DNA of 64,000 nt from Escherichia coli (GTDB taxonomy: Bacteria > Pseudomonadota > Gammaproteobacteria > Enterobacterales > Enterobacteriaceae): NCBI RefSeq assembly GCF_003334765.1, contig NZ_QOWT01000006.1, one strand, 5' to 3'. Every line of letters starts with the position of its first letter. Within the stretch, counting starts at the first letter, position 1. Below are positions 1,310 through 62,889 of this stretch, in pieces. Position numbers and translations under genes: made by a program. The notes below the pieces were generated by a model. That model searched no databases, was not told the origin of the DNA, and was given only the letters and a program-made list of their open reading frames with translations.

Positions 1310-2128
1310 AGCAACCTCCGTGAAAATGAATAATAATCCGCACATATTGCATGTACAACATGTCGGGCGGATGAGATAAGCGAGTCGACATCTGGCGTTA
1401 CCGGGGAATATCAGAAAAATGTCATGGTTATGTGATGATTTAGTCTGGGATTTTACTTCAGAGAAACGGGTGTCTGTTTAGTCAACAAAATAATCACAAA
1501 CGCAACGGATGGGTTCTCGACGTTATTCACGACAGGCTCGTACATTACAGCGAGTAATAAAAAACCTGATATGCAAAGTCAAACCAATATTCATAATGTC
1601 TTTTTATTCACAACAATAAATAATTCAATAACAATCATTGAAATGAATGATGGTTTGTATAAGGAATATACGCTACCGCCCCACCCTGATAACATGATCT
1701 GCACATTGCCATCTTAACGTCGTTAAACACTAGCTTAATAGTGGATATTTCAAATTAGGAATTTATTAAATTCACCTGATGAATATAATAAGCAAATAGC
1801 ATAGAAAATAATGACAACTCCCCCGAGGGGACCATTTCCAAAGCACTGCACCACCACCTGGTGCCGGATGATCTTGCTTCAGTGGTAAGAGTACCTGATG
1901 CATTGTTCCCAAAATGGTGTTTTCCCCTGCCCCTCCAATAATGTGTAGCTCTCACTTGATAATCTATTGATTAGGTTATATTAAGAATCAACATTTAAAA
2001 TACATTCATTTTCTTGAATAAATCAACATGTTTATTAATCAATTGCTGTTTTAGCTCTGACTCATCAAGCTCTCCATATTTGTCCTACAGATAATTGCGA
2101 ATAAATACAGAGAACGCCATTTATCCTT

Positions 2129-2341
2129 TTAGCATACCTGCCGGATATTTTTATTTGTATTAATATTAATTGCATCTCCAACTCCGAGCATATCCATCAT
2201 TAAAAACATTTTGAGATTATAGAATGCCTGTGATAACAACTGAAACATCTGCACAATGTGAATAGTTAGTTTCTTTTCAGAGGAAATGAAATAGACACGC
2301 TGAATGAAAAGGAGAGTGATATAAATTAAAAAACATACCAT
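2129..2341 (-). CDS. yncH: small 70-aa protein of unknown function
   Basis: 70-codon ORF in an AT-rich segment; size and position between the rhs remnant and yncG match yncH. Confidence 0.5.
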   Translation of the reverse strand: MVCFLIYITLLFIQRVYFISSEKKLTIHIVQMFQLLSQAFYNLKMFLMMDMLGVGDAININTNKNIRQVC

Positions 2342-2416
2342 GAATTTAATTAATTACGCCCATCATTGTGGATAAAGTTACTGAATAATAAATAACATAA
2401 TCTTCTGGTATCCCAC

Positions 2417-3034
2417 TCAAATAATTTCATTCCTTTTTAATACTTCTTGTAATTTCGGTAACTGACATACAGCATCAGCAATCGCACTGATATTCGTGGC
2501 ATTATCCTGAAACCATTCATGCCCAGGCCCCCATGTGCGCATAGTGCAAAGATAACAGTCCACCAGCGTTAGTTGCTCACCAAACGCATAAGGTTCAGCA
2601 GTGAGCTGCGAATTCAACCAGATATAAAGCGATTTTCGATATTCAATAACATTCTTCTTTAACTGTTCAGGTGCGTCAGGAGCCCAACGCTCAGGGTAAT
2701 CGGCGAAAGTGAATGTTGGATAGACATTAGCAACCAGCCAGACCAATTGCCGTTGAAACAGCTGACGTTCGGCGCGCCCAACCGGTGGCGCAAGGTCCGG
2801 GCGACGATCGAGAACCATCAATGCAATCGCCGCTGTCTCCGTCATAATCTCGTCATTTTCCAATGCCAGTGTCGGAACCTGACACAACGGGTTCAGGGTT
2901 TTCAATAACTCGCGTGAAGCTCCCTCGTGGTCAAAACCACTGACATCAACGAACTGATAAGGAATATCAGCCAGTGTTAGCATCAGCTCACTGATTGTAG
3001 AGCCCCATCCGGGTACGCCATACACCTTAATCAT
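2417..3034 (-). CDS. yncG: glutathione S-transferase homologue
   Basis: 205-aa ORF with a thioredoxin-like N-terminus (MIKVYGVPGWGSTISEL); synteny next to ansP. Confidence 0.8.
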   Translation of the reverse strand: MIKVYGVPGWGSTISELMLTLADIPYQFVDVSGFDHEGASRELLKTLNPLCQVPTLALENDEIMTETAAIALMVLDRRPDLAPPVGRAERQLFQRQLVWLVANVYPTFTFADYPERWAPDAPEQLKKNVIEYRKSLYIWLNSQLTAEPYAFGEQLTLVDCYLCTMRTWGPGHEWFQDNATNISAIADAVCQLPKLQEVLKRNEII

Positions 3035-3300
3035 ATGCCCCTCACAATCTTTTAAAGATTAAGTGTAGGACAGTACACAGGTTAACCAGCAAAAGGATTT
3101 GTCATTTTTTCGTCAGTTGTATTAATCCCCTTCAGGATTGTAAGGGGATGTTTTGCATCGTTTATCGATAACGGGTAGGATGCTGCGCCGATAGTTTTAT
3201 ACCCATAAAGAATAATGGTGATAACTATCATCGCCAGGATGAATAAACATTGTTCATGGCAACTTATATGACTTTTTCATTAAAGCAATCAGGGAGAGCA

Positions 3301-4800
3301 ATGAGTAAACACGACACCGACACTTCAGATCAACACGCCGCGAAACGCCGCTGGCTTAATGCCCACGAAGAGGGGTATCACAAAGCGATGGGCAATCGCC
3401 AGGTGCAGATGATCGCCATTGGCGGCGCGATTGGCACCGGCTTGTTTTTAGGTGCAGGAGCCCGACTGCAAATGGCGGGGCCCGCACTGGCACTGGTTTA
3501 TTTAATTTGTGGCTTGTTTTCGTTTTTTATTCTGCGTGCATTGGGTGAGCTGGTGCTACACCGCCCTTCCAGTGGCAGTTTTGTTTCTTATGCCCGTGAG
3601 TTTTTGGGTGAGAAAGCCGCTTATGTTGCTGGCTGGATGTACTTCATCAACTGGGCGATGACGGGGATTGTTGATATTACCGCCGTCGCTCTGTATATGC
3701 ATTACTGGGGTGCGTTTGGCGGCGTGCCGCAGTGGGTCTTTGCGCTCGCTGCACTTACCATCGTTGGCACCATGAATATGATCGGTGTGAAATGGTTTGC
3801 GGAGATGGAGTTCTGGTTTGCGCTTATTAAAGTGCTCGCCATTGTGACCTTTTTGGTCGTGGGTACAGTGTTCCTCGGTAGTGGTCAGCCGCTGGATGGC
3901 AACACCACTGGCTTTCATTTAATCACCGATAATGGCGGCTTCTTCCCCCACGGTTTGCTGCCTGCGCTGGTGTTGATTCAGGGCGTAGTGTTTGCTTTTG
4001 CCTCCATTGAAATGGTGGGTACAGCTGCCGGAGAATGTAAAGATCCGCAGACCATGGTGCCTAAAGCCATTAACAGTGTGATTTGGCGTATTGGCCTGTT
4101 TTACGTCGGCTCCGTGGTGTTGCTGGTTATGTTATTGCCGTGGAGCGCGTATCAGGCGGGGCAAAGTCCGTTCGTGACGTTTTTCTCTAAACTGGGTGTG
4201 CCATATATCGGCAGCATTATGAACATTGTGGTGCTGACCGCTGCCCTCTCCAGCCTGAATTCAGGTCTGTACTGCACCGGACGTATTCTGCGCTCAATGG
4301 CGATGGGCGGTTCCGCACCGAGTTTTATGGCGAAAATGAGTCGTCAGCATGTGCCGTATGCCGGGATTCTGGCGACACTAGTTGTGTATGTCGTCGGCGT
4401 ATTCCTCAACTATCTGGTGCCGTCGCGCGTATTTGAGATTGTGTTGAACTTCGCGTCGCTGGGAATCATCGCTTCATGGGCGTTTATCATCGTGTGCCAG
4501 ATGCGCCTGCGTAAAGCGATTAAAGAAGGCAAAGCAGCGGATGTCAGTTTTAAACTGCCTGGCGCGCCCTTCACTTCCTGGCTGACATTACTGTTTTTAC
4601 TGAGTGTCCTTGTGCTGATGGCGTTCGATTACCCGAACGGGACTTATACTATCGCGGCGCTGCCGATTATCGGTATTTTGCTGGTTATAGGCTGGTTTGG
4701 TGTGCGCAAACGCGTTGCTGAAATTCACAGCACTGCGCCAGTCGTCGAGGAAGATGAAGAAAAACAGGAAATTGTGTTTAAGCCTGAAACGGCGAGTTAA
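3301..4800 (+). CDS. ansP: L-asparagine permease (APC family amino acid transporter)
   Basis: 499 codons from the ATG at 3301, preceded by AGGGAGAG. Multi-TM protein; the track ORF starts 17 codons further upstream but 3301 has the better RBS and gives the expected length. Confidence 0.9.
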   Translation: MSKHDTDTSDQHAAKRRWLNAHEEGYHKAMGNRQVQMIAIGGAIGTGLFLGAGARLQMAGPALALVYLICGLFSFFILRALGELVLHRPSSGSFVSYAREFLGEKAAYVAGWMYFINWAMTGIVDITAVALYMHYWGAFGGVPQWVFALAALTIVGTMNMIGVKWFAEMEFWFALIKVLAIVTFLVVGTVFLGSGQPLDGNTTGFHLITDNGGFFPHGLLPALVLIQGVVFAFASIEMVGTAAGECKDPQTMVPKAINSVIWRIGLFYVGSVVLLVMLLPWSAYQAGQSPFVTFFSKLGVPYIGSIMNIVVLTAALSSLNSGLYCTGRILRSMAMGGSAPSFMAKMSRQHVPYAGILATLVVYVVGVFLNYLVPSRVFEIVLNFASLGIIASWAFIIVCQMRLRKAIKEGKAADVSFKLPGAPFTSWLTLLFLLSVLVLMAFDYPNGTYTIAALPIIGILLVIGWFGVRKRVAEIHSTAPVVEEDEEKQEIVFKPETAS

Positions 4801-4810
4801 TTGCAAAATT

Positions 4811-4829
4811 GCCCGGCTACGTGCCGGGC
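4811..4829. terminator. GC-rich hairpin (gcccggc-tacgt-gccgggc) between convergent ansP and yncE
   Basis: Perfect 7-bp stem seen directly. The U-tract is weak on the plus strand and TTTT follows on the minus strand, so it may serve yncE or both genes. Confidence 0.35.
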
Positions 4830-4912
4830 AAATTCAGATTACTGACGAAAGTGCCGGATACGCCGTGATAAAAGGCAGGCAAGTCTCACCGTTTTCACCC
4901 TCGCCATATCTA

Positions 4913-5974
4913 TTACAGCGCAATACGAATCACATCGTCTGGCTGGGTAGCTTCCTGCTGTTTAGTGGATTTTTGTTTCACACTGACATACAGCGTTTTG
5001 CCATCGGCAGACAGCGCCAGGCTGTTTGGATGAGTCGGCGTATCGAACGTTTTCACCACTTTATAGCTTTTCGCGTCAATCACACTGACTTTACCTGCCT
5101 GACGATGCGTTACGTAGGCTTCATTACGCGCGGGGTTAAACAGCACAGCCAGTGATTCCGGTGCCGCAACCTTCGTCAGAATATTGCCATTACGGGTATC
5201 GACCACTAACACTTCTGCGGCTTTAGAATCGGTGATAAATGCACGCTGCCTGGCGGTATCAAGGCTAATGTTGATAAAGAAGTGCTCTTTGCCGTCATCC
5301 AGCAGCTTTTTACGGCTGAGGATTTTATTGTCGGCGGTGTCGATGGTAATCAATTCGCCGTCAGCGTTAGTGGTGTAAAGACGTTTGCCTTCGCTATCCA
5401 GCGCCAGACCGGTACTCATTTTACCGGTGTTCTGGATGGCGGTTTTCAGTTTGATATTCCCGCCATCAACGACCCAAATCACGCTCTCTTTACCAATACC
5501 ACTGATGTAAACGGTGTTCGTGGCATCGTCAGCTACCAGCTCACGCGGTTGCAGCGGGCGCACCTCTTCCGTGCGCTTACGATCATCCAGCACCAGACGG
5601 CCTTTCACTTCGCCCGTTTTGGCATCTATCGCCGTGACCGCGCTGTTTACGGTGTTACCAAACCACAACGTCTGAGTCGTGTTATTGATGGTGGCACCAA
5701 ACGGCTTGAGATCGTTATGGATCGCCTGCGTCACTTCCAGAGTGACCGGATCAAGACGATAAACCACGCCACCTTTATCCAGTTTGCGGCTTTGCGAAGT
5801 GGCGAGCCACAGCGCGTTTTCTTGCTGGCTATAAGCCATTTCGTAGGCACCTTTACCTACCGCTTTACGCAGCATTTCTTCTGCGGCCTGCGTACTGAAT
5901 GATGAAACAACAAGCAATGAACCTAACAGTAATGAACCACGCAGGCGCGATGAAAACAGATGACGTAAATGCAT
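4913..5974 (-). CDS. yncE: secreted seven-bladed beta-propeller protein (PQQ-like repeats)
   Basis: 353-aa ORF with a signal peptide (MHLRHLFSSRLRGSLLLGSLLVVSSFSTQA) and repeated propeller blades; divergent from yncD. Confidence 0.85.
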   Translation of the reverse strand: MHLRHLFSSRLRGSLLLGSLLVVSSFSTQAAEEMLRKAVGKGAYEMAYSQQENALWLATSQSRKLDKGGVVYRLDPVTLEVTQAIHNDLKPFGATINNTTQTLWFGNTVNSAVTAIDAKTGEVKGRLVLDDRKRTEEVRPLQPRELVADDATNTVYISGIGKESVIWVVDGGNIKLKTAIQNTGKMSTGLALDSEGKRLYTTNADGELITIDTADNKILSRKKLLDDGKEHFFINISLDTARQRAFITDSKAAEVLVVDTRNGNILTKVAAPESLAVLFNPARNEAYVTHRQAGKVSVIDAKSYKVVKTFDTPTHPNSLALSADGKTLYVSVKQKSTKQQEATQPDDVIRIAL

Positions 5975-6058
5975 GACGACTCCCTTTGATGAACCGATAT
6001 TTTTGCTGCTTCACAATGCTTCGCTAAGCGTAATCATCGTTACGCTCTTGTTATAAAT

Positions 6059-6077
6059 GGGAATGGTAATCATTATT
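6059..6077. promoter_or_regulatory. Fur-box-like sequence in the yncE/yncD divergent promoter
   Basis: gggaatggtaatcattatt matches the 19-bp Fur consensus GATAATGATAATCATTATC at 15 of 19 positions. It lies 85 bp upstream of yncE and 139 bp upstream of the TonB-dependent receptor yncD. Confidence 0.4.
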
Positions 6078-6215
6078 TTCTCAAATGTGGAGCATTTCTT
6101 GCCGTTACGACTACAATTTTCTCAATTACTTAACGTATTGTGCCGTTTCATTTTCCATAAATTTACAATTTCATTACCATGACGGCGTTTTCCCATTCTT
6201 AACCTGGCTTTTTTC

Positions 6216-8318
6216 ATGAAGATTTTTTCCGTCCGACAGACCGTTTTGCCCGCACTGCTTGTCCTTTCCCCCGTTGTTTTTGCCGCTGATGAACAGACTA
6301 TGATTGTCAGTGCCGCACCGCAGGTGGTTTCAGAACTGGATACCCCAGCAGCAGTAAGCGTGGTGGATGGCGAGGAGATGCGCCTGGCAACACCGCGCAT
6401 TAACTTGTCCGAATCACTGACCGGCGTGCCTGGTTTGCAGGTACAAAACCGGCAGAACTATGCGCAAGATTTACAGCTGTCGATTCGCGGATTTGGCTCC
6501 CGCTCCACTTACGGTATTCGCGGTATTCGCCTGTATGTGGACGGTATTCCCGCCACCATGCCCGACGGGCAAGGGCAAACATCCAACATCGATTTAAGCA
6601 GTGTGCAAAATGTGGAAGTGCTGCGTGGCCCCTTCTCTGCCCTGTATGGCAACGCGTCTGGTGGGGTAATGAATGTCACCACCCAGACCGGACAACAGCC
6701 ACCAACCATTGAAGCCAGTAGTTACTACGGCAGTTTTGGCAGCTGGCGCTATGGGCTGAAAGCAACGGGCGCAACGGGAGACGGCACACAGCCTGGCGAT
6801 GTCGATTACACCGTCTCAACCACGCGTTTTACGACCCACGGCTATCGTGACCATAGTGGCGCACAGAAAAATTTAGCCAATGCCAAACTGGGCGTACGCA
6901 TTGATGAAGCCAGCAAATTAAGTCTGATTTTCAATAGTGTGGATATCAAAGCAGATGACCCAGGTGGGCTAACCAAAGCAGAATGGAAGGCTAATCCACA
7001 ACAAGCGCCTCGTGCAGAACAGTACGACACGCGAAAAACCATCAAGCAAACTCAGGCTGGGTTGCGCTATGAGCGTAGCCTGAGTTCGCGGGATGATATG
7101 AGTGTGATGATGTATGCCGGAGAGCGAGAAACGACCCAGTACCAGTCAATACCCATGGCACCACAACTTAACCCGTCACATGCGGGCGGCGTGATTACCC
7201 TGCAACGCCATTACCAGGGAATAGACAGCCGCTGGACACACCGTGGTGAACTGGGCGTTCCGGTCACGTTCACTACCGGCCTGAACTACGAAAACATGAG
7301 TGAAAACCGCAAGGGCTACAATAACTTCCGCCTGAATAGCGGCATGCCGGAGTACGGGCAAAAAGGTGAGTTGCGTCGCGACGAACGCAATCTGATGTGG
7401 AACATCGATCCCTATTTACAGACGCAGTGGCAGCTGAGCGAAAAACTGTCGCTGGATGCTGGCGTGCGCTACAGCTCCGTGTGGTTTGATTCCAACGACC
7501 ATTACGTTACTCCGGGTAACGGCGATGACAGCGGTGATGCCAGTTATCATAAATGGCTACCTGCCGGTTCGTTAAAATATGCAATGACCGATGCCTGGAA
7601 TATCTATCTGGCAGCCGGGCGAGGTTTTGAAACGCCGACGATTAATGAGCTGTCTTATCGTGCTGATGGGCAAAGCGGTATGAACTTAGGTTTAAAACCA
7701 TCCACCAACGATACAATTGAGATCGGCAGTAAAACGCGTATTGGTGATGGGCTGCTTAGTCTCGCATTGTTTCAGACCGACACTGATGATGAAATTGTTG
7801 TCGATAGCAGTAGCGGTGGGCGTACGACTTACAAAAATGCCGGAAAGACCCGTCGTCAAGGCGCTGAACTGGCATGGGATCAACGTTTCGCAGGAGATTT
7901 TCGCGTAAACGCGTCCTGGACCTGGCTTGATGCGACCTATCGCAGCAATGTTTGCAATGAACAGGATTGTAACGGTAATCGGATGCCAGGGATCGCCCGT
8001 AATATGGGCTTTGCGTCGATAGGTTATGTACCGGAAGATGGTTGGTATGCAGGCACGGAAGCGCGTTATATGGGCGATATTATGGCAGATGATGAAAATA
8101 CGGCAAAAGCGCCGTCTTATACTCTCGTCGGCTTATTCACCGGGTATAAATACAATTACCACAATTTAACTGTGGATTTATTTGGTCGTGTCGATAATTT
8201 ATTCGATAAAGAATACGTTGGTTCTGTCATTGTCAATGAGTCAAACGGGCGATATTACGAACCTTCGCCCGGACGAAATTATGGTGTCGGCATGAATATT
8301 GCGTGGAGATTTGAGTAA
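6216..8318 (+). CDS. yncD: TonB-dependent outer-membrane receptor
   Basis: 700-aa ORF with a signal peptide, plug domain and beta-barrel. Confidence 0.85.
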   Translation: MKIFSVRQTVLPALLVLSPVVFAADEQTMIVSAAPQVVSELDTPAAVSVVDGEEMRLATPRINLSESLTGVPGLQVQNRQNYAQDLQLSIRGFGSRSTYGIRGIRLYVDGIPATMPDGQGQTSNIDLSSVQNVEVLRGPFSALYGNASGGVMNVTTQTGQQPPTIEASSYYGSFGSWRYGLKATGATGDGTQPGDVDYTVSTTRFTTHGYRDHSGAQKNLANAKLGVRIDEASKLSLIFNSVDIKADDPGGLTKAEWKANPQQAPRAEQYDTRKTIKQTQAGLRYERSLSSRDDMSVMMYAGERETTQYQSIPMAPQLNPSHAGGVITLQRHYQGIDSRWTHRGELGVPVTFTTGLNYENMSENRKGYNNFRLNSGMPEYGQKGELRRDERNLMWNIDPYLQTQWQLSEKLSLDAGVRYSSVWFDSNDHYVTPGNGDDSGDASYHKWLPAGSLKYAMTDAWNIYLAAGRGFETPTINELSYRADGQSGMNLGLKPSTNDTIEIGSKTRIGDGLLSLALFQTDTDDEIVVDSSSGGRTTYKNAGKTRRQGAELAWDQRFAGDFRVNASWTWLDATYRSNVCNEQDCNGNRMPGIARNMGFASIGYVPEDGWYAGTEARYMGDIMADDENTAKAPSYTLVGLFTGYKYNYHNLTVDLFGRVDNLFDKEYVGSVIVNESNGRYYEPSPGRNYGVGMNIAWRFE

Positions 8319-51830: not shown

Positions 51831-54143
51831 TCAATACAACTCATCAAGTTTTCTCATCGCTTGTTCCCGTATTGCGCGCGTCTTACCGTTAAGCGCCAGC
51901 TGGCGGACTAAATCCAGTTCAGGGTTAACAAGCTCTAACGCCAGCAAAGGATCACGTTTCAGCCTCGCCTTTAATACATCAACTGGAAAACGGGGATTAT
52001 TCATCGCCACAATCCACCACTCGGGATCAATTTCTGCCGCCAGTACTGCAGGCGGTGTGTGGCGGTTGTTAAGTGCGCCGAACTTGAAAAATGTGAGATT
52101 GCTTTTCGCCAGTGTACTCCACCATATACGATCCGGTTGTTTTGCCAGTACATCCAGTTGTGCTAACGCATCGGGGTCTAGTGCATAATAAACACGTAAC
52201 GCTTCGTCAACCTGCGCACGGGAACTGTTTTCCTGCCTCAGAAAAAACTTCGCCCAAATATCATTGCGTGGCGTGTTTTGCTGTAATTCCTTGAGAACAA
52301 CAGCGGGTAAATTATCCCAACTAATTAATGCACTCTCTAAAAAGTCCCAGTCGTCCGAACGTATCAGGGCGGTGGCATTTAATAGCATCTGGTCATCAAC
52401 TTCGCCGTGGCTAATCAGCTCAGACAAAATCATATCAGCGCTGGTTTCATATGCATCTGAATCTGCTTTCGGATTATTTTTCCGATGCGATAAAGCACGT
52501 TGCCAAATTTTTTGTTTCATCGACGTGCTCAGATACTGATTTTTCGCCAGATTACTCCACCCTTCAGGATCGTTGAAACGTGTCAATAACCGTTGTAAAG
52601 CAGCGTCAGAGTGAATTACCTGCATATCCCGACAGCAAAAGTAGGCCGGGGATTTTTTCTCCATCCTTTTAACAAAATTAAACTGTAAGTTATCTGGCAA
52701 TGCTAAAAATAACACACGTATTAGATCATCGTCATTCTCGAATTTTTGGTATAAATAGCCTGCAACTTTGTCACTCTCTTGTGGCGTCATCCGCAACAAT
52801 TGACCATGGTGTTTCATCTCTGCCAGCTTGAACGCTAAGCTTGTGACAACATTGTTTGATGAATCGTTCGCCAACTGCATTGCCTGATTGTAGGTGAGTT
52901 GTCCTCCAGCACCGACCTGACGAATAGAGGAATCATCACTGCGGATATAGCCATCAATAATGGATTCAGGCAATAACCACGCATCTTTATAAAGCTCCTG
53001 AATGATCATATCCCAATCTCTTTTCGCCAGAGTCATGACGATATCCAGAGGGAGATTTTCACGTAGCGCAAGATTCAACGGACCGACACCATCAGGTAGA
53101 CGACTCATTCGCGTCATTATTTCGACAGAGAGCGGTTCACGGTCGAGCAACCCCAGAACAACAGGCTGGTAACCCAATTGCTGATCGGTCAACTCCAGAA
53201 TCTCATTGTCAGGCATATATCTCGCCATACTTTCAATCGTTTGTTCATCATTGCTATTAATAAGTTGTTTGCGTAGGTTAGCTGAAATTCCTTTAAGCCT
53301 TGGGAGAGTTCGCATTACGGCAAGATCAAATGTCGCAATGTCTCGTCCTTCAAATGCAGCAACTTTGCCTTCATCCAGCATTTGCAATTCTTGCACTAAC
53401 TCAGGAGAAGGCTTAGGGCGAAACAGCGCTTCTTTTTTCATCTGATTACAGACATTCCCTGCCATGCGAATATTGCTTCGCTTAAAAATTTCTTTCAGAG
53501 CATCTTCATCATTAATTAGCCCCCAATAATATGCATCAGGATTTATTATCATCAGCGCTTTTTTGACATTTTCAGTGTCATGTTTGTCACTCGCACGGAC
53601 CATGAATTCACTATTTGTCGAAGACGCAACAACAGGTGCAATTATGTCATTGATAAATATCCCACGCGCATTAATACTCCCCTTAATCGTAGACGGATTA
53701 TCGTAATATGAGTCGATAAATACCAGTCCACTTGCATTTATCGAACCGGTAATTAACAGTGGTGAATCCGCAACTATATTCGTTGCCGTCACGTTACCGA
53801 GAATAACCCATGGATTAGAAAGAGAGAAAGTGGAAATATTACCTTTGACTGTCAAATTCCCAAGAACAATCAATTTTTGATTACTCTCTATATTACCTTC
53901 TACCACTAAATCGCCACGATGCACTTTCCAGTTCGATGCAGATAAACCGAAGGGGACAAGATTCACGCTACTGTTGATAGCTTGTTCAACTTGTTGTTTA
54001 TCTTCAGCGGTAGCCGCAGAAAAAAATGATTCAATATCAACTGCATTTGCAACACATCGAAGTTCCGCCTGTACTGGTAGACTCAGCATAAACAGGGGCA
54101 GTAAACGTATCCAGCCGCAATTCCTGGCCTTAAACATATGCAC
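51831..54143 (-). CDS. ydbD: large secreted protein of unknown function
   Basis: 770-aa ORF with a signal peptide (MHMFKARNCGWIRLLPLFMLSLPVQA). Confidence 0.75.
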   Translation of the reverse strand: MHMFKARNCGWIRLLPLFMLSLPVQAELRCVANAVDIESFFSAATAEDKQQVEQAINSSVNLVPFGLSASNWKVHRGDLVVEGNIESNQKLIVLGNLTVKGNISTFSLSNPWVILGNVTATNIVADSPLLITGSINASGLVFIDSYYDNPSTIKGSINARGIFINDIIAPVVASSTNSEFMVRASDKHDTENVKKALMIINPDAYYWGLINDEDALKEIFKRSNIRMAGNVCNQMKKEALFRPKPSPELVQELQMLDEGKVAAFEGRDIATFDLAVMRTLPRLKGISANLRKQLINSNDEQTIESMARYMPDNEILELTDQQLGYQPVVLGLLDREPLSVEIMTRMSRLPDGVGPLNLALRENLPLDIVMTLAKRDWDMIIQELYKDAWLLPESIIDGYIRSDDSSIRQVGAGGQLTYNQAMQLANDSSNNVVTSLAFKLAEMKHHGQLLRMTPQESDKVAGYLYQKFENDDDLIRVLFLALPDNLQFNFVKRMEKKSPAYFCCRDMQVIHSDAALQRLLTRFNDPEGWSNLAKNQYLSTSMKQKIWQRALSHRKNNPKADSDAYETSADMILSELISHGEVDDQMLLNATALIRSDDWDFLESALISWDNLPAVVLKELQQNTPRNDIWAKFFLRQENSSRAQVDEALRVYYALDPDALAQLDVLAKQPDRIWWSTLAKSNLTFFKFGALNNRHTPPAVLAAEIDPEWWIVAMNNPRFPVDVLKARLKRDPLLALELVNPELDLVRQLALNGKTRAIREQAMRKLDELY

Positions 54144-54199
54144 TCCATGCCATTAAAAAAGAAAAAAAGGGAAATGCATCTTTCCCTTTTGTATATTCG

Positions 54200-55060
54200 T
54201 TATTCTCGCGAAATACCATCCAACGTAGACAACACTTCCTCAGAAAGATGCAATTTTTCAGCAGCCATATTCTCCCGTAAATGCGCAACCGAAGACGTCC
54301 CTGGGATCAGCAAAATATTCGGTGAACGCTGTAACAGCCACGCCAGCGCCACCTGCATTGGTGTTGCACCCAGGCTCGCAGCAACATCGGAAAGTGTGGA
54401 CGATTGCAGCGGTGTAAAGCCCCCGAGCGGGAAGAACGGCACGTAGGCAATGCCATCGTGGGCCAAAGCATCAATCATTGCATCATCAGCACGGTGCGCG
54501 ATGTTGTATTCGTTTTGCACACAGACAATTTCGGCAATCTTGCGCGCCTCTGCAACCTGCGTCGGTGTGACGTTGCTCAGGCCAATATGTTTTACCAGGC
54601 CTTGTTGTTGCATCTCTGCCAGCACGGTCAGGCTGGCCTCAATCGATCCTTCCGCTGGGCCATGACCATCCCCCATCATAACGCGCAGGTTAACCACATC
54701 CAGCACGTCCAGCCCGAGATTACGTAGATTATCGTGCACCGCTTTTTGCAGCTCTGCCGGAGAAAATGCGGGCAACCAGGATGCGTCCTCTCCACGCCGC
54801 GCACCAATTTTAGTGACAATTGTCAGGTCGTCAGAGTAAGGATAAAGCGCTTCGCGGATAATCTGATTGGTGACGTGCGGACCATAAAAGTCGCTGGTAT
54901 CAATATGATTGACGCCCAATGCCAGCGCCTCACGCAGCACGGTTATAGCGACGTGGCGATCTCGTGGGGGGCCAAAAACTCCAGGACCTGCCAGTTGCAT
55001 CGCGCCATAACCAAGACGGTTAACGGATTTTGTACCGAGAGTAAATGTATTGCTGCTCAT
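54200..55060 (-). CDS. ydbC: NAD(P)-dependent aldo-keto reductase
   Basis: 286-aa ORF with an AKR fold (MSSNTFTLGTKSVNRLGYGAMQLAG...). Confidence 0.85.
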   Translation of the reverse strand: MSSNTFTLGTKSVNRLGYGAMQLAGPGVFGPPRDRHVAITVLREALALGVNHIDTSDFYGPHVTNQIIREALYPYSDDLTIVTKIGARRGEDASWLPAFSPAELQKAVHDNLRNLGLDVLDVVNLRVMMGDGHGPAEGSIEASLTVLAEMQQQGLVKHIGLSNVTPTQVAEARKIAEIVCVQNEYNIAHRADDAMIDALAHDGIAYVPFFPLGGFTPLQSSTLSDVAASLGATPMQVALAWLLQRSPNILLIPGTSSVAHLRENMAAEKLHLSEEVLSTLDGISRE

Positions 55061-55210
55061 CGCACCCTGCCCTGTAATAAAACGGATTAAGAAAAATCAG
55101 TATAGAAACGAAAAGAGATAAATAATGCGAAGGTGTAAACAAGATTACTGGATGAGTTGCTCTATTGTCCTGAAAGACACAAAACAAAACGCGTCACGTA
55201 CCACATCCGG

Positions 55211-55246
55211 CAATAAAAAAACCGCAACCTGTATCAGCGTTGCGGT
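55211..55246 (-). terminator. intrinsic terminator after ydbA
   Basis: Hairpin ccgcaac-ctgtatcagcg-ttgcgg followed on the minus strand by TTTTTTT, 22 nt after the ydbA stop. Confidence 0.55.
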
Positions 55247-55267
55247 TTAGGGATCACATGCTAAAAA

Positions 55268-58200
55268 TTAGAACGTTTTCTTGAAGTTCAGCATCACGCC
55301 TTTATCGCTGATGCCATCCTCTTTCCAGTTGTACGCATCCAGATTCAGCGAACTTTCTTTGCTGCTGTACTTCACGCCGACGCTTGTCAGGCTATTGATG
55401 CCGCCGCCCTTCTGACCGTCATCGACGTTAAAGTGCTGACTGCCTGCGCCTGCCAGGCTTGCCGTACGCTGGCTCTTCGCGTAGCTCAGGTTCGGCCCGC
55501 CTTCCAGCGTAGCGCTAGCGCTCCAGCCGTCTTTACCTGCGTAGTCCAGTTTCAGCCCGACGATGCTGTCCACCGCCGTTTCGCTGCCACTGTTCATATT
55601 CAGGTTAAAGTCTCCGGCATTGCGCTCCTGATAGCCACCTTCCAGTGTGTGACGCAGTTTTACACCCGCATATGGCGTAACCTTCAGTCCTTCGCTCGGT
55701 TCGAAAGTCTTCGCCCCTTCGCTGCGGAACTCCAGGTACTGCTGTTTCACGTCGGTATCAGCCGTTTTGTTCGTGTTGCCAAATGCAATCGAGCGGCTGC
55801 TGTCAAGGTTGTGAACGTCGTAACGCAAGGCGTTATTCCAGTTCATGCCGTTATCGAACGACATCTGATGTTTCAGGCCAAAAAACTGGCTATAACCGCC
55901 TGTAACGCCATTATCACCCGCTTTCTGCGCACCATCACCATCGAGACGAGCGATACCGTACTCCAGACTCATCGTCTGGCTTTCGCTCAGGTCGATAGTT
56001 TTACGCAATGCCAGCATGTCGTATTCGGTATTATTACCTAACTCGGCACGCGGATCGCCTTTCGCGACAACGTTGAACGCCAGACCGTTACCCACTTTCG
56101 GCGCGGCATCTGCCAGCATACTAAAGCGGTTGCTTAACACGCGCGCTTCGCGGAATACCGTGGTCGCCTGGCTACCGCTGACCTGTTTCAGAGCACTGTT
56201 CAGTTCAGCAGTCGTGCCGACGTTCAGGCTGGTAAACAGTTCGTTGTTGGTGTAACCCGCATCCAGTGCTTTCGCGATGTCATTCACCGAGGCATCTGTT
56301 GCCACATCGGTGTAGGCATTTTTGCTCATGGTGACGTCAACGTTACCGCTGGCATCGGTGCTGCCTTTGGCAGTCCATACCACGGACGTTGAGGTGATGG
56401 CGTCAGCGTCGGTCAGGTTGCTACCTTCCACTACGTTATCAAAACTCACAGTGGTGTCTGCCGTACCAGCGGTAAAGCCCGTGTTAATCTCCACGCCGTT
56501 CATGCTGGCATTGTTAACCTTCAGCTTCCCGGCGCTGCCGTTAACGTTGGTACCGACGACATAGCCGTTGAGGTTGTTCATGCTGCCACCAGCCTCATCA
56601 CTTCCCGACGTTACACTAACCGTATTGGGCTTCGGCACATCCGGCAACGTATAGTCGCCATAATGCACTTCGCTGCTATTACCGTTGTTACCGTTCATAC
56701 CTTCAACATTGATGCTGTCGCCCTGCTTGATCAGTCCAGAACCCGTAACCCCATCGGCAATCACCACCGTGCCGTTGTTAACCACATGACCTACTGTACC
56801 CAGTACGCTAAATGCAAACGAGTCATTGGCGAAGATATTGATGGTGCCGTTGTTTTCGATTACCGCATCCGCCGTGGCGTTGGCATCGAGTTGCATACCG
56901 ATCATACCCGTGTCAGTAGTGCCTGCGGTACCGAGGTTGATGGTGCCATTGTTAACCAGCTGCGCGTTCTTATCACCTTCCATAGCCACAGCACCGGTGC
57001 CGCTGATGTTCATGATGCCGTCATTCTGGGCAATAAAGTTGCTGTGGGTGACTTTCACGGCACTGGCGCTGTCGTGATCGAAGTTGATGACCCCGTTATC
57101 CTGGTTCCAGAAGAAGGCATTCTGATCGCCGGCATTATTAGCGCTGACTACCAGTGACTTCGCAGAAACATCAATCGTTCCGTCATTGATAAAACGACCA
57201 TTTCCGCCCCACATATTAACGGCTCCGTTGTGGGAAGAATTACTGATGTTCATGTGACCGGTATTATAAAGCGTACCGGACTGGTTGATGTGCACAGCAT
57301 TCTTGTCGTTATCAAGAATAAACTCGCCGCGGTTATTGAAAGCTGAATTATTATTAACTTCCAGCATCCCGGTGTTGTTACCCTCACTACTACTTCCGAG
57401 GTTCCAGGTTCCTTCGTTATTTGCCACTGCAGTACCTGTCAGCGCAGCACCTCTCATAATCGCCCCGTCAGTTTGATTATTAAAGACCCCGCCAGCCGAC
57501 ATCATCCGCCCTGTTACACTGCCACTATTATTGAATACCCCCGCGTTCTGCACGATTTTATTGATGGTTCCGGTGTTGTTCACTAACGAACTATCAGCAC
57601 CAGCATTCATGGTAATTTGCGCAGTCATTTCTCCGGCATTATTGAGGATTCCACCGCTAACATCGACGTTATTCGTCATCACCCCGGCATTTTTAATGAC
57701 GGCACCCTTGTCAAGTTTTACTAAGTTATTGATGATGCCACCGCTGGTATTTTCCAGAAGACCGCTTGATACCGTAATTTGATCACCGGAAAGCGTTCCG
57801 CTATTAACAACATTCCCAGCCAGCTTATCAGTCACAGCAGCAGATTTATTTAGCGTTACAGTTTCTCCGCTTCGTGTAATCGTATCGCCACCGGTATAGA
57901 TCAGTGAGGTGAAATCATCTGTATTATTGTACTCATTCCCCGATTGGCACACGCCGAAAGTGCAGATTGTACCATAGTTAACAATTGTTCCTGTGCCATC
58001 GTTATAAAACGCCTGACCAGTACCAACATTGATATTGATAACACCCGTCTGGTCGTTGATAGCAGTACCATGCTCATAAACAGCCATCCCTACCAGAGTA
58101 TTTGCTGCCAGACTATCGTCATAATTACCATTTTTTTCGAGGTTAATCGTCCCCTGGTTAATAACTGTATTGCTGGCGCCATAGGCCGCCATACCTGCGC

Positions 58201-61036
58201 CGGCGTTATAAATAGTTATAACACCGCCCAATTGGTTAATTGCTGTTGCATTTTTCCCTGCACCACTATAACTATCAGTACCAACTCCCACACCTGTACC
58301 GAAGTCAATGGCGCTGTTGCTAGCTATATCTCGCATTGCGGTAGTGTCATTTGCATCTACCCACATAGAATCCAGTGTAATTTTACCCTGATTTTCTGCT
58401 GTTGAATCTGCTATAGCAAGCATGCCGACACTACCACGACCATACAAATCAATGATGCCGCTGTCAGTATTGATAATTGTGCTATTCGATTGAGCGACTA
58501 ACCCTGTTATGCTACTGACATCGTTATTAAAAATAAATGAATTCGATGTGCCCGTTGAATACTTGTTAAATACGCTATGTTGTTCCGTCACTTTACCTGT
58601 GATCGTACCTGCATTAGTGGCGCTCCCTCCGTTAGTAGCCAGTAAAACAATGGGAGACGGTGCCGGATCTTTACCATTTTGTAATAACGAGATCGTGCCA
58701 CTATTTATACCTGTTGTATTTTCACCAGTAACAAAAGCAAAACCTAAATTCTGAATTTCAACAGTACCTTTATTAACAATTTTCGCACCGGAATCAGCAT
58801 AAGTAAGTTCTGGGGTTCTTGTCCCATGATGTTCAAAACTGTCAATATCCTGCATTGTTAGCGTAGCGCCACTGCCAATTTCCAGCAAAGCTTTATCCTG
58901 TACCCGAATAACCCCGGCAAACCCCAGAGGGAATTCTCCGCTGATTGTCGTATCTCCATTCAGATATACCGACGACTCACCACTAACGACAATAACGCTG
59001 GTATAACTATATCCTGTGCGCAAGGAAGTAACCTGCGACCCATCTGCAAGCGCGTTTTTCTCTCCAATCAGTTCAAGTCCACCATTCATATTAACGGTAT
59101 TGCCATCGCCAATCACAACCAGACCTGACGTTTTCTCTGCGCTGCCATCAAATAAATTACTCTGACGAGAAGTAACCTCACTGTCTGATACAACAGTTAA
59201 CTTTCCATCCAGCGTCACGTTATTATCACTGCCGTAAACGTTGATACCCACGGATGGATCGAAGAAATATTCCGCCGCATTGTCTGCGGTTTTATCCTTA
59301 TCAACCAGAACGTTACCAGTGATATTCACTGTATTCGCATCGCCAGAAACGTTTATGCCCGTCGCTTTCTGCCCGACCACTTTTAGATCTTTTGCCGCCA
59401 GCGTCACGCTGTTATTGTTGCCATTAAGATCTACCCCGGTCGAGAAATCGCCAACCTGCATACTGCCTGCCAGCGAAACCTTCCCACTGTTGGTTGTGAT
59501 GCTGAACCCTGTCGCTTCATTGCTAACGTTAACATCACCCGTATTGGATACTGTTGCCCCCTCACCGTTGATGAGCACGCCAATCGATCCAGTATCGGAA
59601 ACAACAATATCTCCTTTGTTGTTAACCGTGCCGTTGTCACCAATGTTCTCAACACCATGCGCACCGCCTGTAACAGTCAGGCTACCATCCAGATTTACAA
59701 TGCCGATATTGCCCGCGATTTTGGTACCCGTGGAATCTTTTCCATCAACAGTGGTTTTTCCACTGTTATTCGCGGTGGCGTCGTTACCGTTGATCTGAGT
59801 GCCGGTGCCGCCATTGGTGATAGTGCTCTCGCCTTCGTTATTGACGATGGCCTGGTCGCCGTCAATCTGGATACCGATGGACTCCGGATCGGTGACGGTC
59901 ATGGTGCCCTTGTTATCCACCGTTGCGCTGTCGCCGGTGATATCAATACCGTGACCGCCGCCGCTGACATCCAGATCGCCGTCCTGAATAACTTTTCCGT
60001 TATTACCGTTGATTTCCGTACCGGTGGAATCCTTGCCGTCAACGGTGGTTTTGCCGTTGTTGTTTGCCGTGGCGTCATCACCATTAATCTGGGTGCCGGT
60101 GCCACCGTTGGTGATGGTGCTCTCGCCTTCGTTATTGACGATGGCCTTGTCACCGTCGATCTGGATACCCATGGACTCCGGATCGGTGACGGTCATGGTG
60201 CCCTTGTTATCCACCGTCGCGCTGTCACCGGTGATATCAATACCGTGACCGCCGCCGCTGACATCCAGATCGCCGTCCTGAATCACTTTCCCGTTATTAC
60301 CGTTGATTTCCGTACCGGTGGAATCTTTACCGTCAACGGTGGTTTTGCCATTGTTGTTTACTGTGGCATTATCACCCGTAATAACAAGCTCACCGTTGTG
60401 ATTATATTGCCACTTCGTTGCGCCATCTGCGCTCACCCCTTCAAGGGCAACAGTGTTATTCGCTTCATCAATCTGCCAAAGATTAATCGTTGCCTTACGA
60501 CCATTGCTATCTTGCAGAGATATAGTCCCGTCAGCATTCTCGGTATAAGTAAAAACTGAATCGCGAATAGTTAACGTTTTTTCTGTTTTATCGAGAATAA
60601 CGTCATTATTAAACGAAACCGGTTTGGGAGGTGTAGGCGTATCATCCGGATCGTCCGGTATTATCTCATCTCCGCCAGGAGTTGGGGGAACTGGAGTGTC
60701 GTCTGATTCATCATCAGGGGGTGTCGGTGGGAGTGGAGAATTGTTGCGATGATGATGATCATCATCGTCGTTTAGTTCCACTACGGCTAAGGCCGTGATT
60801 AACGCAGCAGCGCCTGTGGAAAGCCATGGCATCAGGTTTTGTTCGACTAAAGGAGAGCATTCAGAGGGTAAGCGTTTAAGCTCTTCCGGACTGAGTTTTC
60901 CTGGGTCTGCCGGACAAGTCACATTGGTATTTTTCTTTTCACCTGTGGTGGTTTCTACCTCTGTGATATCTGCCGCCCAACCCTGACCACTCAGAGCTAA
61001 TGCAATACAGGCCGACAATAGAGTTTTCCTTTGCAT
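55268..61036 (-). CDS. ydbA: type V autotransporter (large repeat-rich passenger plus C-terminal beta-barrel), uninterrupted
   Basis: 1922-aa ORF with a signal peptide (MQRKTLLSACIALALSGQGWA), a Pro/Asp-rich linker, a Gly/Asn/Thr-rich beta-helical passenger with tandem repeats, and a C-terminal barrel ending ..NFKKTF. Confidence 0.85.
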   Translation of the reverse strand: MQRKTLLSACIALALSGQGWAADITEVETTTGEKKNTNVTCPADPGKLSPEELKRLPSECSPLVEQNLMPWLSTGAAALITALAVVELNDDDDHHHRNNSPLPPTPPDDESDDTPVPPTPGGDEIIPDDPDDTPTPPKPVSFNNDVILDKTEKTLTIRDSVFTYTENADGTISLQDSNGRKATINLWQIDEANNTVALEGVSADGATKWQYNHNGELVITGDNATVNNNGKTTVDGKDSTGTEINGNNGKVIQDGDLDVSGGGHGIDITGDSATVDNKGTMTVTDPESMGIQIDGDKAIVNNEGESTITNGGTGTQINGDDATANNNGKTTVDGKDSTGTEINGNNGKVIQDGDLDVSGGGHGIDITGDSATVDNKGTMTVTDPESIGIQIDGDQAIVNNEGESTITNGGTGTQINGNDATANNSGKTTVDGKDSTGTKIAGNIGIVNLDGSLTVTGGAHGVENIGDNGTVNNKGDIVVSDTGSIGVLINGEGATVSNTGDVNVSNEATGFSITTNSGKVSLAGSMQVGDFSTGVDLNGNNNSVTLAAKDLKVVGQKATGINVSGDANTVNITGNVLVDKDKTADNAAEYFFDPSVGINVYGSDNNVTLDGKLTVVSDSEVTSRQSNLFDGSAEKTSGLVVIGDGNTVNMNGGLELIGEKNALADGSQVTSLRTGYSYTSVIVVSGESSVYLNGDTTISGEFPLGFAGVIRVQDKALLEIGSGATLTMQDIDSFEHHGTRTPELTYADSGAKIVNKGTVEIQNLGFAFVTGENTTGINSGTISLLQNGKDPAPSPIVLLATNGGSATNAGTITGKVTEQHSVFNKYSTGTSNSFIFNNDVSSITGLVAQSNSTIINTDSGIIDLYGRGSVGMLAIADSTAENQGKITLDSMWVDANDTTAMRDIASNSAIDFGTGVGVGTDSYSGAGKNATAINQLGGVITIYNAGAGMAAYGASNTVINQGTINLEKNGNYDDSLAANTLVGMAVYEHGTAINDQTGVININVGTGQAFYNDGTGTIVNYGTICTFGVCQSGNEYNNTDDFTSLIYTGGDTITRSGETVTLNKSAAVTDKLAGNVVNSGTLSGDQITVSSGLLENTSGGIINNLVKLDKGAVIKNAGVMTNNVDVSGGILNNAGEMTAQITMNAGADSSLVNNTGTINKIVQNAGVFNNSGSVTGRMMSAGGVFNNQTDGAIMRGAALTGTAVANNEGTWNLGSSSEGNNTGMLEVNNNSAFNNRGEFILDNDKNAVHINQSGTLYNTGHMNISNSSHNGAVNMWGGNGRFINDGTIDVSAKSLVVSANNAGDQNAFFWNQDNGVINFDHDSASAVKVTHSNFIAQNDGIMNISGTGAVAMEGDKNAQLVNNGTINLGTAGTTDTGMIGMQLDANATADAVIENNGTINIFANDSFAFSVLGTVGHVVNNGTVVIADGVTGSGLIKQGDSINVEGMNGNNGNSSEVHYGDYTLPDVPKPNTVSVTSGSDEAGGSMNNLNGYVVGTNVNGSAGKLKVNNASMNGVEINTGFTAGTADTTVSFDNVVEGSNLTDADAITSTSVVWTAKGSTDASGNVDVTMSKNAYTDVATDASVNDIAKALDAGYTNNELFTSLNVGTTAELNSALKQVSGSQATTVFREARVLSNRFSMLADAAPKVGNGLAFNVVAKGDPRAELGNNTEYDMLALRKTIDLSESQTMSLEYGIARLDGDGAQKAGDNGVTGGYSQFFGLKHQMSFDNGMNWNNALRYDVHNLDSSRSIAFGNTNKTADTDVKQQYLEFRSEGAKTFEPSEGLKVTPYAGVKLRHTLEGGYQERNAGDFNLNMNSGSETAVDSIVGLKLDYAGKDGWSASATLEGGPNLSYAKSQRTASLAGAGSQHFNVDDGQKGGGINSLTSVGVKYSSKESSLNLDAYNWKEDGISDKGVMLNFKKTF
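59816..60403. repeat. two tandem 294-bp (98-codon) near-identical repeats inside ydbA, flanked by more diverged copies
   Basis: Copy 59816-60109 versus 60110-60403 is about 95% identical by eye; encodes repeated NNGKTTVDGKDSTGTEINGNNGKVIQDGDLDVSGGGHGIDITGDSATVDNKGTMTVTDPES... units. Confidence 0.8.
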
Positions 61037-61197
61037 AATAAATCCTTCTGGCGAATATAAAGAAAGCCGGATGCACTAACCCGACCAATTAGTTATTTAA
61101 AACATAGAAGACATCCAATATTGCCAGTAGATTATTATCTAATCAAACATACTTTCCTATAATTCACAATTATAATTCAGGTGAATAAAAAAAGACC

Positions 61198-61263
61198 ATG
61201 AAATATATAAATTGTGTATATAATATAAATTACAAATTAAAACCACATTCTCATTATAAATAA
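61198..61263 (+). CDS. ynbG: 21-codon micro-ORF (MKYINCVYNINYKLKPHSHYK) in the AT-rich ydbA-paaY intergenic region
   Basis: ATG to TAA seen directly; size and location fit the small protein ynbG as I recall it. There is no strong Shine-Dalgarno, and neither the sequence identity nor expression is verified. Confidence 0.35.
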   Translation: MKYINCVYNINYKLKPHSHYK

Positions 61264-61299
61264 TTATATGATGAAAAAACGGTATGAATTAATACTCAA

Positions 61300-61340
61300 A
61301 TAAATAAAGCAGAGCTTAAACATAACTCTGCTTTATAATT
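61300..61340. terminator. hairpin aagcagag-N11-ctctgctt with T-rich flanks between the micro-ORF and convergent paaY
   Basis: Inverted repeat seen directly; T-rich sequence follows on both strands. Confidence 0.4.
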
Positions 61341-61366
61341 AAAGGGACAAAATAATTTTACATCTG

Positions 61367-61957
61367 TTACTGTTTCGGTCGCAGATTCTCATCAAATACC
61401 AGGCGTTTCCTGCCAGGTTCAATTTCCCGCAATGGCTCGACTTGATGTAACGTCTGCTTACAGCGTGTCACCAGCACCTGGTACTCATGCGTACCCTGCT
61501 TTTTCCATGCCAACTCCTGCTCACTGAGTTCACGAATCGCTTTCGCCGGGCTGCCGACAATCAGGTAATTAGCTGGCATTTCTGCTTTGGCTTTCACAAA
61601 TGCGGATGCACCAACAATGCTGTTCTCGCCAATCACCGCACCGTCCATCACTACCGCGTTCATTCCCACTAATGCATTGCGGCGGATAATGCAGCCGTGA
61701 AGGATAGCGCTATGACCAATATGTCCATCTTCTCCTACAACAGTATCCTGCTCGGGAAAACCGTGCATAACGCAATTATCCTGAATGTTCGCGCCATCTT
61801 TCACCACGATACGACCAAAATCGCCACGCAGGCTGGCATTTGGCCCAACGTAAACGCCCTTGCCGAGAATAACATCGCCGATCAATACCGCTGTCGGATG
61901 GACAAAACTCTCTTCTGGCACAACCGGAGTCAGACCGTCTATCTGATAAATTGGCAT
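61367..61957 (-). CDS. paaY: hexapeptide-repeat protein of the phenylacetate cluster (acyl-CoA thioesterase-like)
   Basis: 196-aa ORF with a left-handed beta-helix repeat; follows paaX with a 19-nt overlap. Confidence 0.85.
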
Positions 61958-62889
61958 AACGCCTCCTGTTCAATATTCAAGCCGCCAAAACGTTGAAAAT
62001 ACAGGCTTCCCGGCGCAGGCAGTTCACCGACCGAGGTTTCACCTTTTTCACTAACGAACGCTAAAGCAGCAGGCGCTACGCGCTGATAAATGTTGATACA
62101 CAGCTGACGCGCCGTATGCCCTGCCCAGTGTGCCGGAAGCAACTCCTCCGGCAACAATGGGTCTTTAAGGACGACACGGCGATAAAAATGGATCAGTAAA
62201 AGCTGAATATGAAATGCCCGCTCCGGGGTTAACTCGTCTGCCGCCTCTTTTAAAAGCGGCACCAGCGGGCGGAATGACTGAATAAAGGTTTCGTACATGG
62301 CATTTTGTTCAGTTAAATGCCAGCACTCTTCTACTCTGGCACGCAGTGCTGCGCGAGAAAGCGCCAGTGGTATTTGCGCTTCAAAACAAATCACGTTATC
62401 CGCCACACCCGCTTCATGCAAAAGTGTCTGTACATCGGCCAGTTTTTGCGACGGCGATGCCATCAGGCTGGGTGCCAGTGCGCCAAAACCTTGCCAGATC
62501 AACTGCTTTTTGACATCAGCCAGCGTTGATTTATCTAAACCTTCCGAGAGCAACAGGAGCCATTTACCATCCCATGCAGGTTGCTCTGCGCGATAAATTT
62601 TACTTTCTGCCCGTCGCGTCAGGCGCAAGCCTTTATCACTGAGGCTATAGAAACTGCGTCGCCCGATGCGGGAAACATCCAGCCAGCCTTCTTTATTAAG
62701 ACGAAACAAAGCGGTGCGCACGAAACGCTCACCAAATCCCAGCCCTTCCAGCAAAGCAGCCAGACTACCCAACCAGATTTCACCACCACGATGGGAAAGC
62801 GAATCACCATACAGAGAGGAGATCAAAGATGTGCCACTGACCGGAACAGCGTTTACAGCATGTTGGATAAAAGTATCAAGTTTACTCAT
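61939..62889 (-). CDS. paaX: phenylacetate catabolism transcriptional repressor
   Basis: 316-aa ORF ([29 protein letters not shown]...). Confidence 0.85.

Follow-up and report, generated by a model that had tools for sequence, protein, structure and literature searches.

Among the described autotransporters close to the one considered here is BigA of Salmonella (NF033178, auto_BigA), which combines a BigA_N domain, a long beta-helix, a BigA_beta domain and a type Va barrel; its passenger has been characterized as AIDA-I-like and its barrel grouped with that of NalP (PMC3419190). Ag43, TibA and AIDA-I are comparable too, each of them a type Va protein that is monomeric and has a beta-helix for its stalk. 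AIDA-type proteins carry imperfect repeats of roughly 19 residues and have a partner heptosyltransferase. In Escherichia coli the related gene is ydbA, which in K-12 MG1655 is a pseudogene (b4492; ydbA_1/ydbA_2) interrupted by two insertion sequences (IS), IS2 and IS30. Here we describe ydbA in a stretch of 64,000 nucleotides (nt) of E. coli DNA (NCBI RefSeq assembly GCF_003334765.1, contig NZ_QOWT01000006.1), the whole of which is referred to below as the window. We consider it quite probable that the gene in the window is an intact allele of the known E. coli ydbA, coding for a type Va autotransporter of the BigA/YdbA family, and that its repeat array has become one unit short by contraction. 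The gene is thus a known one, of a known family and in a known intact form, and repeat polymorphism of this kind is typical of such proteins.

YdbA of the window shares the complete domain set of BigA listed above. However, it scores 1075.9 bits against the NF033178 model, whose cut-off is 3400, and a good alignment is confined to the C-terminal 800 residues, which makes it a relative of BigA rather than BigA proper. Our structure models of YdbA, with an Ag43/TibA-like passenger and a NalP-type barrel, agree with the published account of BigA. The best solved-structure matches to the passenger model are Ag43, TibA and AIDA-I (4kh3, 7koh and 4q1q), with the Ag43 and TibA passengers as the top fold neighbors, at low TM-scores of 0.12-0.19. 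YdbA does not have the features by which self-associating autotransporters of the AIDA-I type are generally recognized: its rungs have a period of 24-25 residues, unlike the AIDA-type repeat, and no glycosyltransferase gene lies near ydbA, whose neighbors are paaY and pdxI.

The ydbA locus and its K-12 counterpart

The coding sequence (CDS) lies on the minus strand and includes a short segment that K-12 has lost:

55268-61036, minus strand: ydbA CDS, with an ATG start and 1922 codons plus stop, uninterrupted, from the list of open reading frames (ORFs) and the translation
58766-58812, minus strand: 47 nt missing from K-12 at the IS2/IS30 site, from sequence comparison

An AAGGA motif is found 6 nt upstream of the ATG. 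The original prediction, made from the sequence letters, had named the gene as an intact ydbA and had described the K-12 copy as disrupted. Both statements hold: the 1922-codon product is 100% identical across its full length to WP_001573416.1 from E. coli O141:H4 P13-6, and the MG1655 gene is split by IS2 and IS30. The gene order in P13-6 is paaY, an ORF of 21 amino acids (aa) on the opposite strand, ydbA and pdxI/ydbC-ydbD, and K-12 shares this locus (paaY, the 21-aa ORF, ydbA, pdxI and ydbD). By its position between paaY and pdxI/ydbC and its near-identity to the K-12 fragments, the window gene is the ortholog of K-12 ydbA. Of 14,733 flanking bases only three differ between the window and P13-6, which indicates that the window comes from a close relative of that strain.

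The comparison with K-12 is no less close, as 5722 of the 5769 nt of the window gene are the same in K-12. There are no differences at all in the 258 nt immediately upstream, in nt 1-948 and 1243-2224 of the gene, or in its last 3498 nt. Set against this background, the window gene differs from that of K-12 in lacking IS2 and IS30, in having 47 additional nt and in carrying two close repeat units in place of three. The K-12 match ends at gene position 2224 and restarts at 2272, with an insert of 2606 nt between these points in K-12. K-12 has lost the 47 nt at the IS site, and its ydbA would therefore not be made whole again if the IS elements were excised precisely. With regard to nomenclature, we noticed that many ydbA-type autotransporter genes in RefSeq bear the name 'EntS/YbdA MFS transporter' (MFS, major facilitator superfamily), apparently from a propagated mix-up of the names ydbA and ybdA.

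The 294-nt repeat array and the probable loss of one unit

Position-by-position self-comparison places the repeat array at gene offsets 654-1535, where it resolves into three units:

60089-60382, minus strand: repeat unit W1, 294 nt/98 aa, with zero differences from unit K1 of K-12
59795-60088, minus strand: repeat unit W2, a chimera of K-12 units K2 and K3, from comparison of informative sites with the K-12 units
59501-59794, minus strand: diverged unit W3, equal to unit K4 of K-12 and 61% identical to W2

Tandem Repeats Finder reports the interval 59717-60376 with a period of 294, 2.2 copies, 90% matches and a score of 1082, and thereby recovers the tandem repeat of the original prediction. 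The details of that prediction fare less well. It had given the two close units as about 95% identical over 59816-60403, a register in which their identity is just 88.1%; in the true register 21 of 294 nt differ between W1 and W2 (92.9% identity), and the best register reaches 93.2%. It had also placed diverged copies on both flanks. One such copy, W3, does lie on the gene's 3' side, whereas the direct 5' neighbor of the array is the BigA_N domain, which is not a repeat. Above all, it had taken the two units for the products of a recent duplication. Their divergence of 7% is mostly synonymous, with 17 synonymous and four non-synonymous differences, so that the proportion of synonymous differences (pS) is 0.25, that of non-synonymous differences (pN) is 0.018 and pN/pS is about 0.07. 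Synonymous divergence among E. coli strains is far below this pS. With 17 of the 21 differences synonymous and so high a pS, the duplication must be old, and the substitution pattern points to units that have been held by purifying selection since.

The origin of W2 becomes apparent from the K-12 array, which consists of three close units, K1, K2 and K3, that are 20-25 nt apart in pairwise comparison and are followed by the diverged K4; most genomes related to K-12 likewise have three close units. W2 and K2 differ at 11 sites, W2 and K3 at nine, and these add up to all 20 differences between K2 and K3. Its informative sites are of the K2 type up to unit position 98 and of the K3 type from position 222, with a single switch that falls within a run of 123 nt identical in K2 and K3. 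The array in the window thus reads K1, K2/K3 chimera, K4, which is the outcome expected if the second and third units of the common array of three recombine once by homology. Since W2 is an exact K2/K3 chimera, the latest event was the loss of one unit (or an assembly collapse with the same outcome) and not a gain. Conversely, the variants of the 3' part of K2 are absent from both W1 and W2, so that the array of K-12 cannot have arisen from one of two units by duplication in a single step.

A wider survey shows how variable the array is. Some part of ydbA is matched in 3127 of 5426 complete E. coli genomes, whereas 2299 have no match. The repeat unit is present in 2393 of the 5426, at 1 to 14 matched places per genome, and W2 (at ≥99% identity) in only 19. 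An even sample of 60 genomes gave counts of 1, 2, 3, 5, 6, 7 and 9, a first unit identical to K1 being almost always accompanied by a count of three, and in 13 loci the array itself was read. Among public proteins, with lengths of 1687-2500 aa, the core motif of the unit is present in one to six copies. The protein cluster at 90% comprises 10,492 members. The exact protein of 1922 aa was seen on 441 contigs, and the complete genomes that encode it number at least four and originate from France, China, Hong Kong and Korea. YdbA thereby falls among the length-variable repeat surface proteins, with in-frame units of 294 nt/98 codons in strain-dependent number; this range of copy numbers fits the recombination-driven length variation suggested in the original prediction.

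Much longer arrays occur in two strains. That of 510016 gives seven matches to the core motif under strict criteria and 14 BLAST places, the gene being interrupted by IS2 and IS1, and that of FG31-1 has seven units, in a frameshifted gene. The units of both are mosaics of K1-, K2- and W2-like segments. Across strains ydbA is disrupted by IS2 with IS30, IS3, IS2 with IS1, ISKpn26 and frameshifts. In strain CUVET17-972 (locus 751-6609) we observed a CDS annotated as a complete BigA/YdbA that starts at Met69 beside IS3; it has no signal peptide and is truncated at its 5' end. An apparent 'variable 5' end' of the gene, with the first 655-660 nt unmatched in most genomes, was rejected as a side effect of joining repeat pieces, the K-12 5' end being identical to that of the window. 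A separate observation concerns an evolved K-12 isolate, for which I485M and seven synonymous changes in ydbA have been reported (PMC10763504, PMC7858067). Residue 485 in K3 aligns with M289 of K1, and the set of changes looks like K1 sequence placed inside K3, either through unit-to-unit conversion or through mis-mapping of reads.

Protein architecture, predicted export and the upstream spacer

From the N- to the C-terminus the protein divides as follows, in addition to the repeat units given above:

60971-61036, minus strand: Sec-type signal peptide, residues 1-22 (MQRKTLLSACIALALSGQGWA|AD), called by inspection of the translated sequence and conserved in homologs
60773-60916, minus strand: conserved N-terminal module, residues 41-88, from an alignment of 18 distant family members
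60620-60772, minus strand: acidic, His-/Pro-rich linker, residues 89-139, from the translation; predicted to be disordered (AlphaFold2 (AF2) model, predicted local distance difference test (pLDDT) <50)
60377-60619, minus strand: BigA_N small beta-barrel, residues 140-220 (Pfam PF25784, E = 8e-33; AF2 pLDDT ~85)
56567-59500, minus strand: remainder of the beta-helical passenger, residues ~513-1490, with AF2 rungs to residue 560 and a likely continuation beyond, judged by sequence character
56315-56566, minus strand: BigA_beta sandwich domain, residues 1491-1574 (Pfam PF25783, E = 3e-25)
56108-56173, minus strand: alpha-helical pre-barrel linker, residues 1622-1643 (helix 145-166 of the AF2 C-terminal fragment)
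55277-56083, minus strand: C-terminal outer-membrane beta-barrel (translocator), residues ~1652-1920 (Pfam PF03797; AF2; Foldseek)

The succession of signal peptide, linker, repeat-rich passenger and barrel had been recognized in the original prediction, and the translation, Pfam, AF2 and Foldseek all uphold it. The signal peptide has the layout MQRK, hydrophobic core and GWA|AD. A lipobox reading of LSAC (residues 7-10) was rejected, since the preceding hydrophobic stretch is too short and the Cys is missing in several homologs. By sequence, neither half of the protein retrieved anything from the Protein Data Bank (PDB), and we therefore turned to structure models and fold searches. For the last 445 residues AF2 predicts (pLDDT 84) a long helix and, after it, about 12 strands that are likewise long, in line with the autotransporter beta-domain PF03797 that Pfam detects at residues 1696-1892 (E = 1e-18), and Foldseek matches this model to the translocators of EstA, AaaA, EspP, NalP and BrkA with E = 2e-9 to 1e-5, and also to Hbp. 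In the model of the first 560 residues, residues 1-135 are without confident structure, while a three-stranded beta-helix begins at residue 221 (pLDDT >95 for 221-540) and its rungs run on to residue 560. Taken together, the Sec signal peptide (by inspection), the helix with its 12-strand barrel and the beta-helical passenger are those of a type Va autotransporter, and the BigA_N and BigA_beta domains place it in the BigA/YdbA family.

The rungs of the model follow one another with periods of 24, 25, 24 and 25 residues, so that the 98-aa unit corresponds to exactly four rungs. As a result, gain or loss of a unit alters the length of the stalk and leaves the fold intact. The usual rise of a beta-helix is 4.8 Å per rung, by which one unit would add about 1.9 nm to the modeled stalk. 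By analogy with the family, the Sec signal peptide would deliver YdbA to the periplasm, where the C-terminal 12-strand barrel would insert into the outer membrane with the linker helix inside its pore. The passenger would then thread outward and fold into a long three-faced beta-helix, whose far, N-terminal end would bear the small BigA_N barrel and a disordered acidic and proline-rich tail. What would suggest a role in adhesion or aggregation is the predicted fold.

The conserved N-terminal module consists of a two-Cys motif (CP..LS..E..LP..C) and a Gly/Ala-rich hydrophobic segment (residues 68-88). In the 18 distant BigA/YdbA relatives aligned, C41, P42, L48, L56, C60, W71 and G75 are invariant; clustering at 50% leaves only 64 representatives of such relatives. 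The module has no match in the copy of Pfam-A that was searched and no confident AF2 model (confidence below 50). In homologs, the linker that follows it contains PPDDGG repeats and varies in length. With a Kyte-Doolittle mean of 1.78, the hydrophobic segment exceeds the signal peptide itself, which is odd for the part of a passenger that comes just after the signal peptide and has to cross two membranes. As a speculation to which we give little credence, the module might fasten the distal passenger end to a membrane, be it that of the producing cell while export is under way or, later, that of a target. If this were true, YdbA and its relatives would be autotransporters anchored at two points, their reach tuned by the count of four-rung units.

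Upstream of the gene, the spacer towards paaY and its surroundings contain the following elements:

61037-61366, no strand: AT-rich paaY-ydbA spacer of 330 bp, from composition and the K-12 promoter island
61198-61263, plus strand: 21-aa ORF WP_010723099.1, translation MKYINCVYNINYKLKPHSHYK, from RefSeq annotation in P13-6, K-12 and others
61304-61336, minus strand: terminator-like hairpin just past paaY, with a 13-pair stem and then a T-rich tail, from a consensus scan
61497-61513, minus strand: sigma-54 site known from the literature, within the 3' part of paaY, present unchanged 464 nt upstream of ydbA

The G+C content of the spacer is 25.2% as against 49% for the whole window, in keeping with the AT-rich upstream region of the original prediction, and its proposal of an H-NS-type promoter finds support in published data for K-12. 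Among the 78 promoter islands listed for K-12 is the paaY/ydbA spacer (1463061_385), which is bound by H-NS in the chromatin immunoprecipitation (ChIP) data of Kahramanoglou and of Oshima (PMC3661553). These islands are AT-rich, H-NS-bound and poor in transcription, and the 258 nt next to ydbA are those of the K-12 island, although the binding data come from K-12 itself, in which the ydbA copy downstream of the island is broken. Transcription of ydbA most likely starts inside the 330-bp spacer. As the K-12 spacer is an H-NS-covered promoter island, ydbA is probably not expressed in laboratory culture, which speaks against the suggestion of the original prediction that this strain may produce the full adhesin-like protein. 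In K-12, ydbA RNA rises 7.7-fold upon loss of the omega subunit of RNA polymerase in an rpoZ mutant (PMC5811629).

A scan with the sigma-70 consensus was uninformative (11 sites against 10.5 expected), and the promoter-island assignment is accordingly taken from the literature. An Rfam scan of 54000-62500, with E up to 0.1, gave no match. A second sigma-54 site of K-12, which is intragenic (CCGGTACGGAAATTGCT), depends on a K3-specific patch (1565-1581 of the K-12 locus sequence); when sought in the window it was found to be absent, the contraction having removed the 5' half of K3. For the 21-aa ORF, a shorter variant of 57 nt is annotated in some strains. Downstream of ydbA, a consensus scan of the minus strand over the 207-nt gap between its stop and the start of pdxI (55061-55267) revealed no terminator-like hairpin, and transcription may read through from ydbA into pdxI.

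Competing readings and their bearing on YdbA

Several observations weigh against the contraction of a K-12-like array in a functional autotransporter. Units of the W2 type also end longer arrays, namely those of ET82 (three units) and FG31-1 (seven), and strain 1409 has an array composed of K1, K2 and a third unit close to W2. Consequently, the parent array need not have been exactly that of K-12, and it may have been like that of 1409. The flanks of genomes with W2 differ at zero to two sites per 6 kb, which is too few to judge whether they form a single clade. On the side of the protein, the signal peptide was called by eye, and a literature search on YdbA/BigA found no data on expression, export or adhesion. 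A further point is that P13-6, the closest public genome, is a hybrid assembly made by Unicycler from Illumina and PacBio RSII reads (PMC8798679), and that collapse of units 2 and 3 across the identical run of 123 nt would write the very same chimera.

In this alternative, the strain would in reality have three units, and an assembler working from short reads first would have skipped a 294-bp loop between the runs shared by units 2 and 3. These runs, of 71 and 123 nt, are at least as long as the k-mers typically used with reads of 100-150 nt, and many of the 441 contigs with the exact 1922-aa protein are presumably short-read drafts. Two laboratory derivatives of K-12 are pertinent here, and can be cited for contraction as well as for collapse. 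MC1061, which has kept IS2 and IS30, has the two-unit array exactly as in the window, and a J53 derivative has a second chimera, also found in the natural strain 2452, with its switch in the other shared run (unit positions 6-76). Both chimeras thus fall exactly at the two shared runs. DH10B, which was derived from MC1061, carries three units, and the array of MC1061 is therefore either peculiar to the stock sequenced or artefactual. The loss of one 294-bp unit in these two laboratory assemblies, with different crossover intervals, could represent either fast and real turnover in laboratory stocks or recurrent assembly collapse. Nevertheless, besides the window, which itself is three sites off P13-6, no fewer than four complete genomes encode the same protein, and these were produced by different laboratories in different countries. 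The W2-type unit in the frameshifted seven-unit array of FG31-1 indicates that this type of unit is real in other arrays. Moreover, W2 is rare (19 of 5426), and nearly all K-12 assemblies retain three units. We therefore regard collapse as an unlikely explanation.

The opposite view, that a recent tandem duplication made two near-identical units in this strain, appeals to two adjacent in-frame units of 294 nt with just four amino-acid differences. However, 21 nt and a pS of 0.25 separate W1 from W2, far above the divergence generally known within E. coli. K-12, whose allele is otherwise identical, carries three units, two of which make up W2 as an exact chimera, and neither the 3' half of K2 nor the 5' half of K3 can be derived from duplication of W1 or W2. 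We consider this reading very improbable. A somewhat different possibility is that intact ydbA is a silenced relic heading for loss, and that the changes in repeats and the IS insertions represent neutral decay. The breakage of the gene in different strains by IS2 with IS30, IS3, IS1, ISKpn26 or frameshifts would fit such a course, as would the 2299 of 5426 genomes without any match, the restriction of the full-length gene to about 42% of phylogroup A genomes (PMC4951805) and the H-NS-bound promoter. Yet the units are under strong purifying selection (pN/pS ~0.07), and the N-terminal module and the barrel are conserved in distant relatives. An ORF of 5.8 kb that has been kept open, with an identical protein on 441 contigs, argues for a maintained function in many lineages. 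Neutral decay is hence a minority view in our assessment, if one to be kept in mind, and we favor an intact and selected gene whose array has contracted.

The principal correction to the original prediction is therefore one of history: an old duplication followed by the recent loss of one unit (or by assembly collapse) takes the place of a recent duplication. This has practical consequences, in that two-unit calls at ydbA from short-read or hybrid assemblies are not to be trusted without a spanning read, and clustered 'synonymous SNPs' (single-nucleotide polymorphisms) reported for ydbA when K-12 is resequenced are probably due to this kind of exchange between units or to wrongly mapped reads. 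For the gene itself, the window shows what the ydbA pseudogene of K-12 looks like when whole, in a form already present in the databases on those 441 contigs and in roughly that 42% of phylogroup A. Its array is best read as a set of old, selected four-rung modules that are gained and lost through exchange between neighbors.

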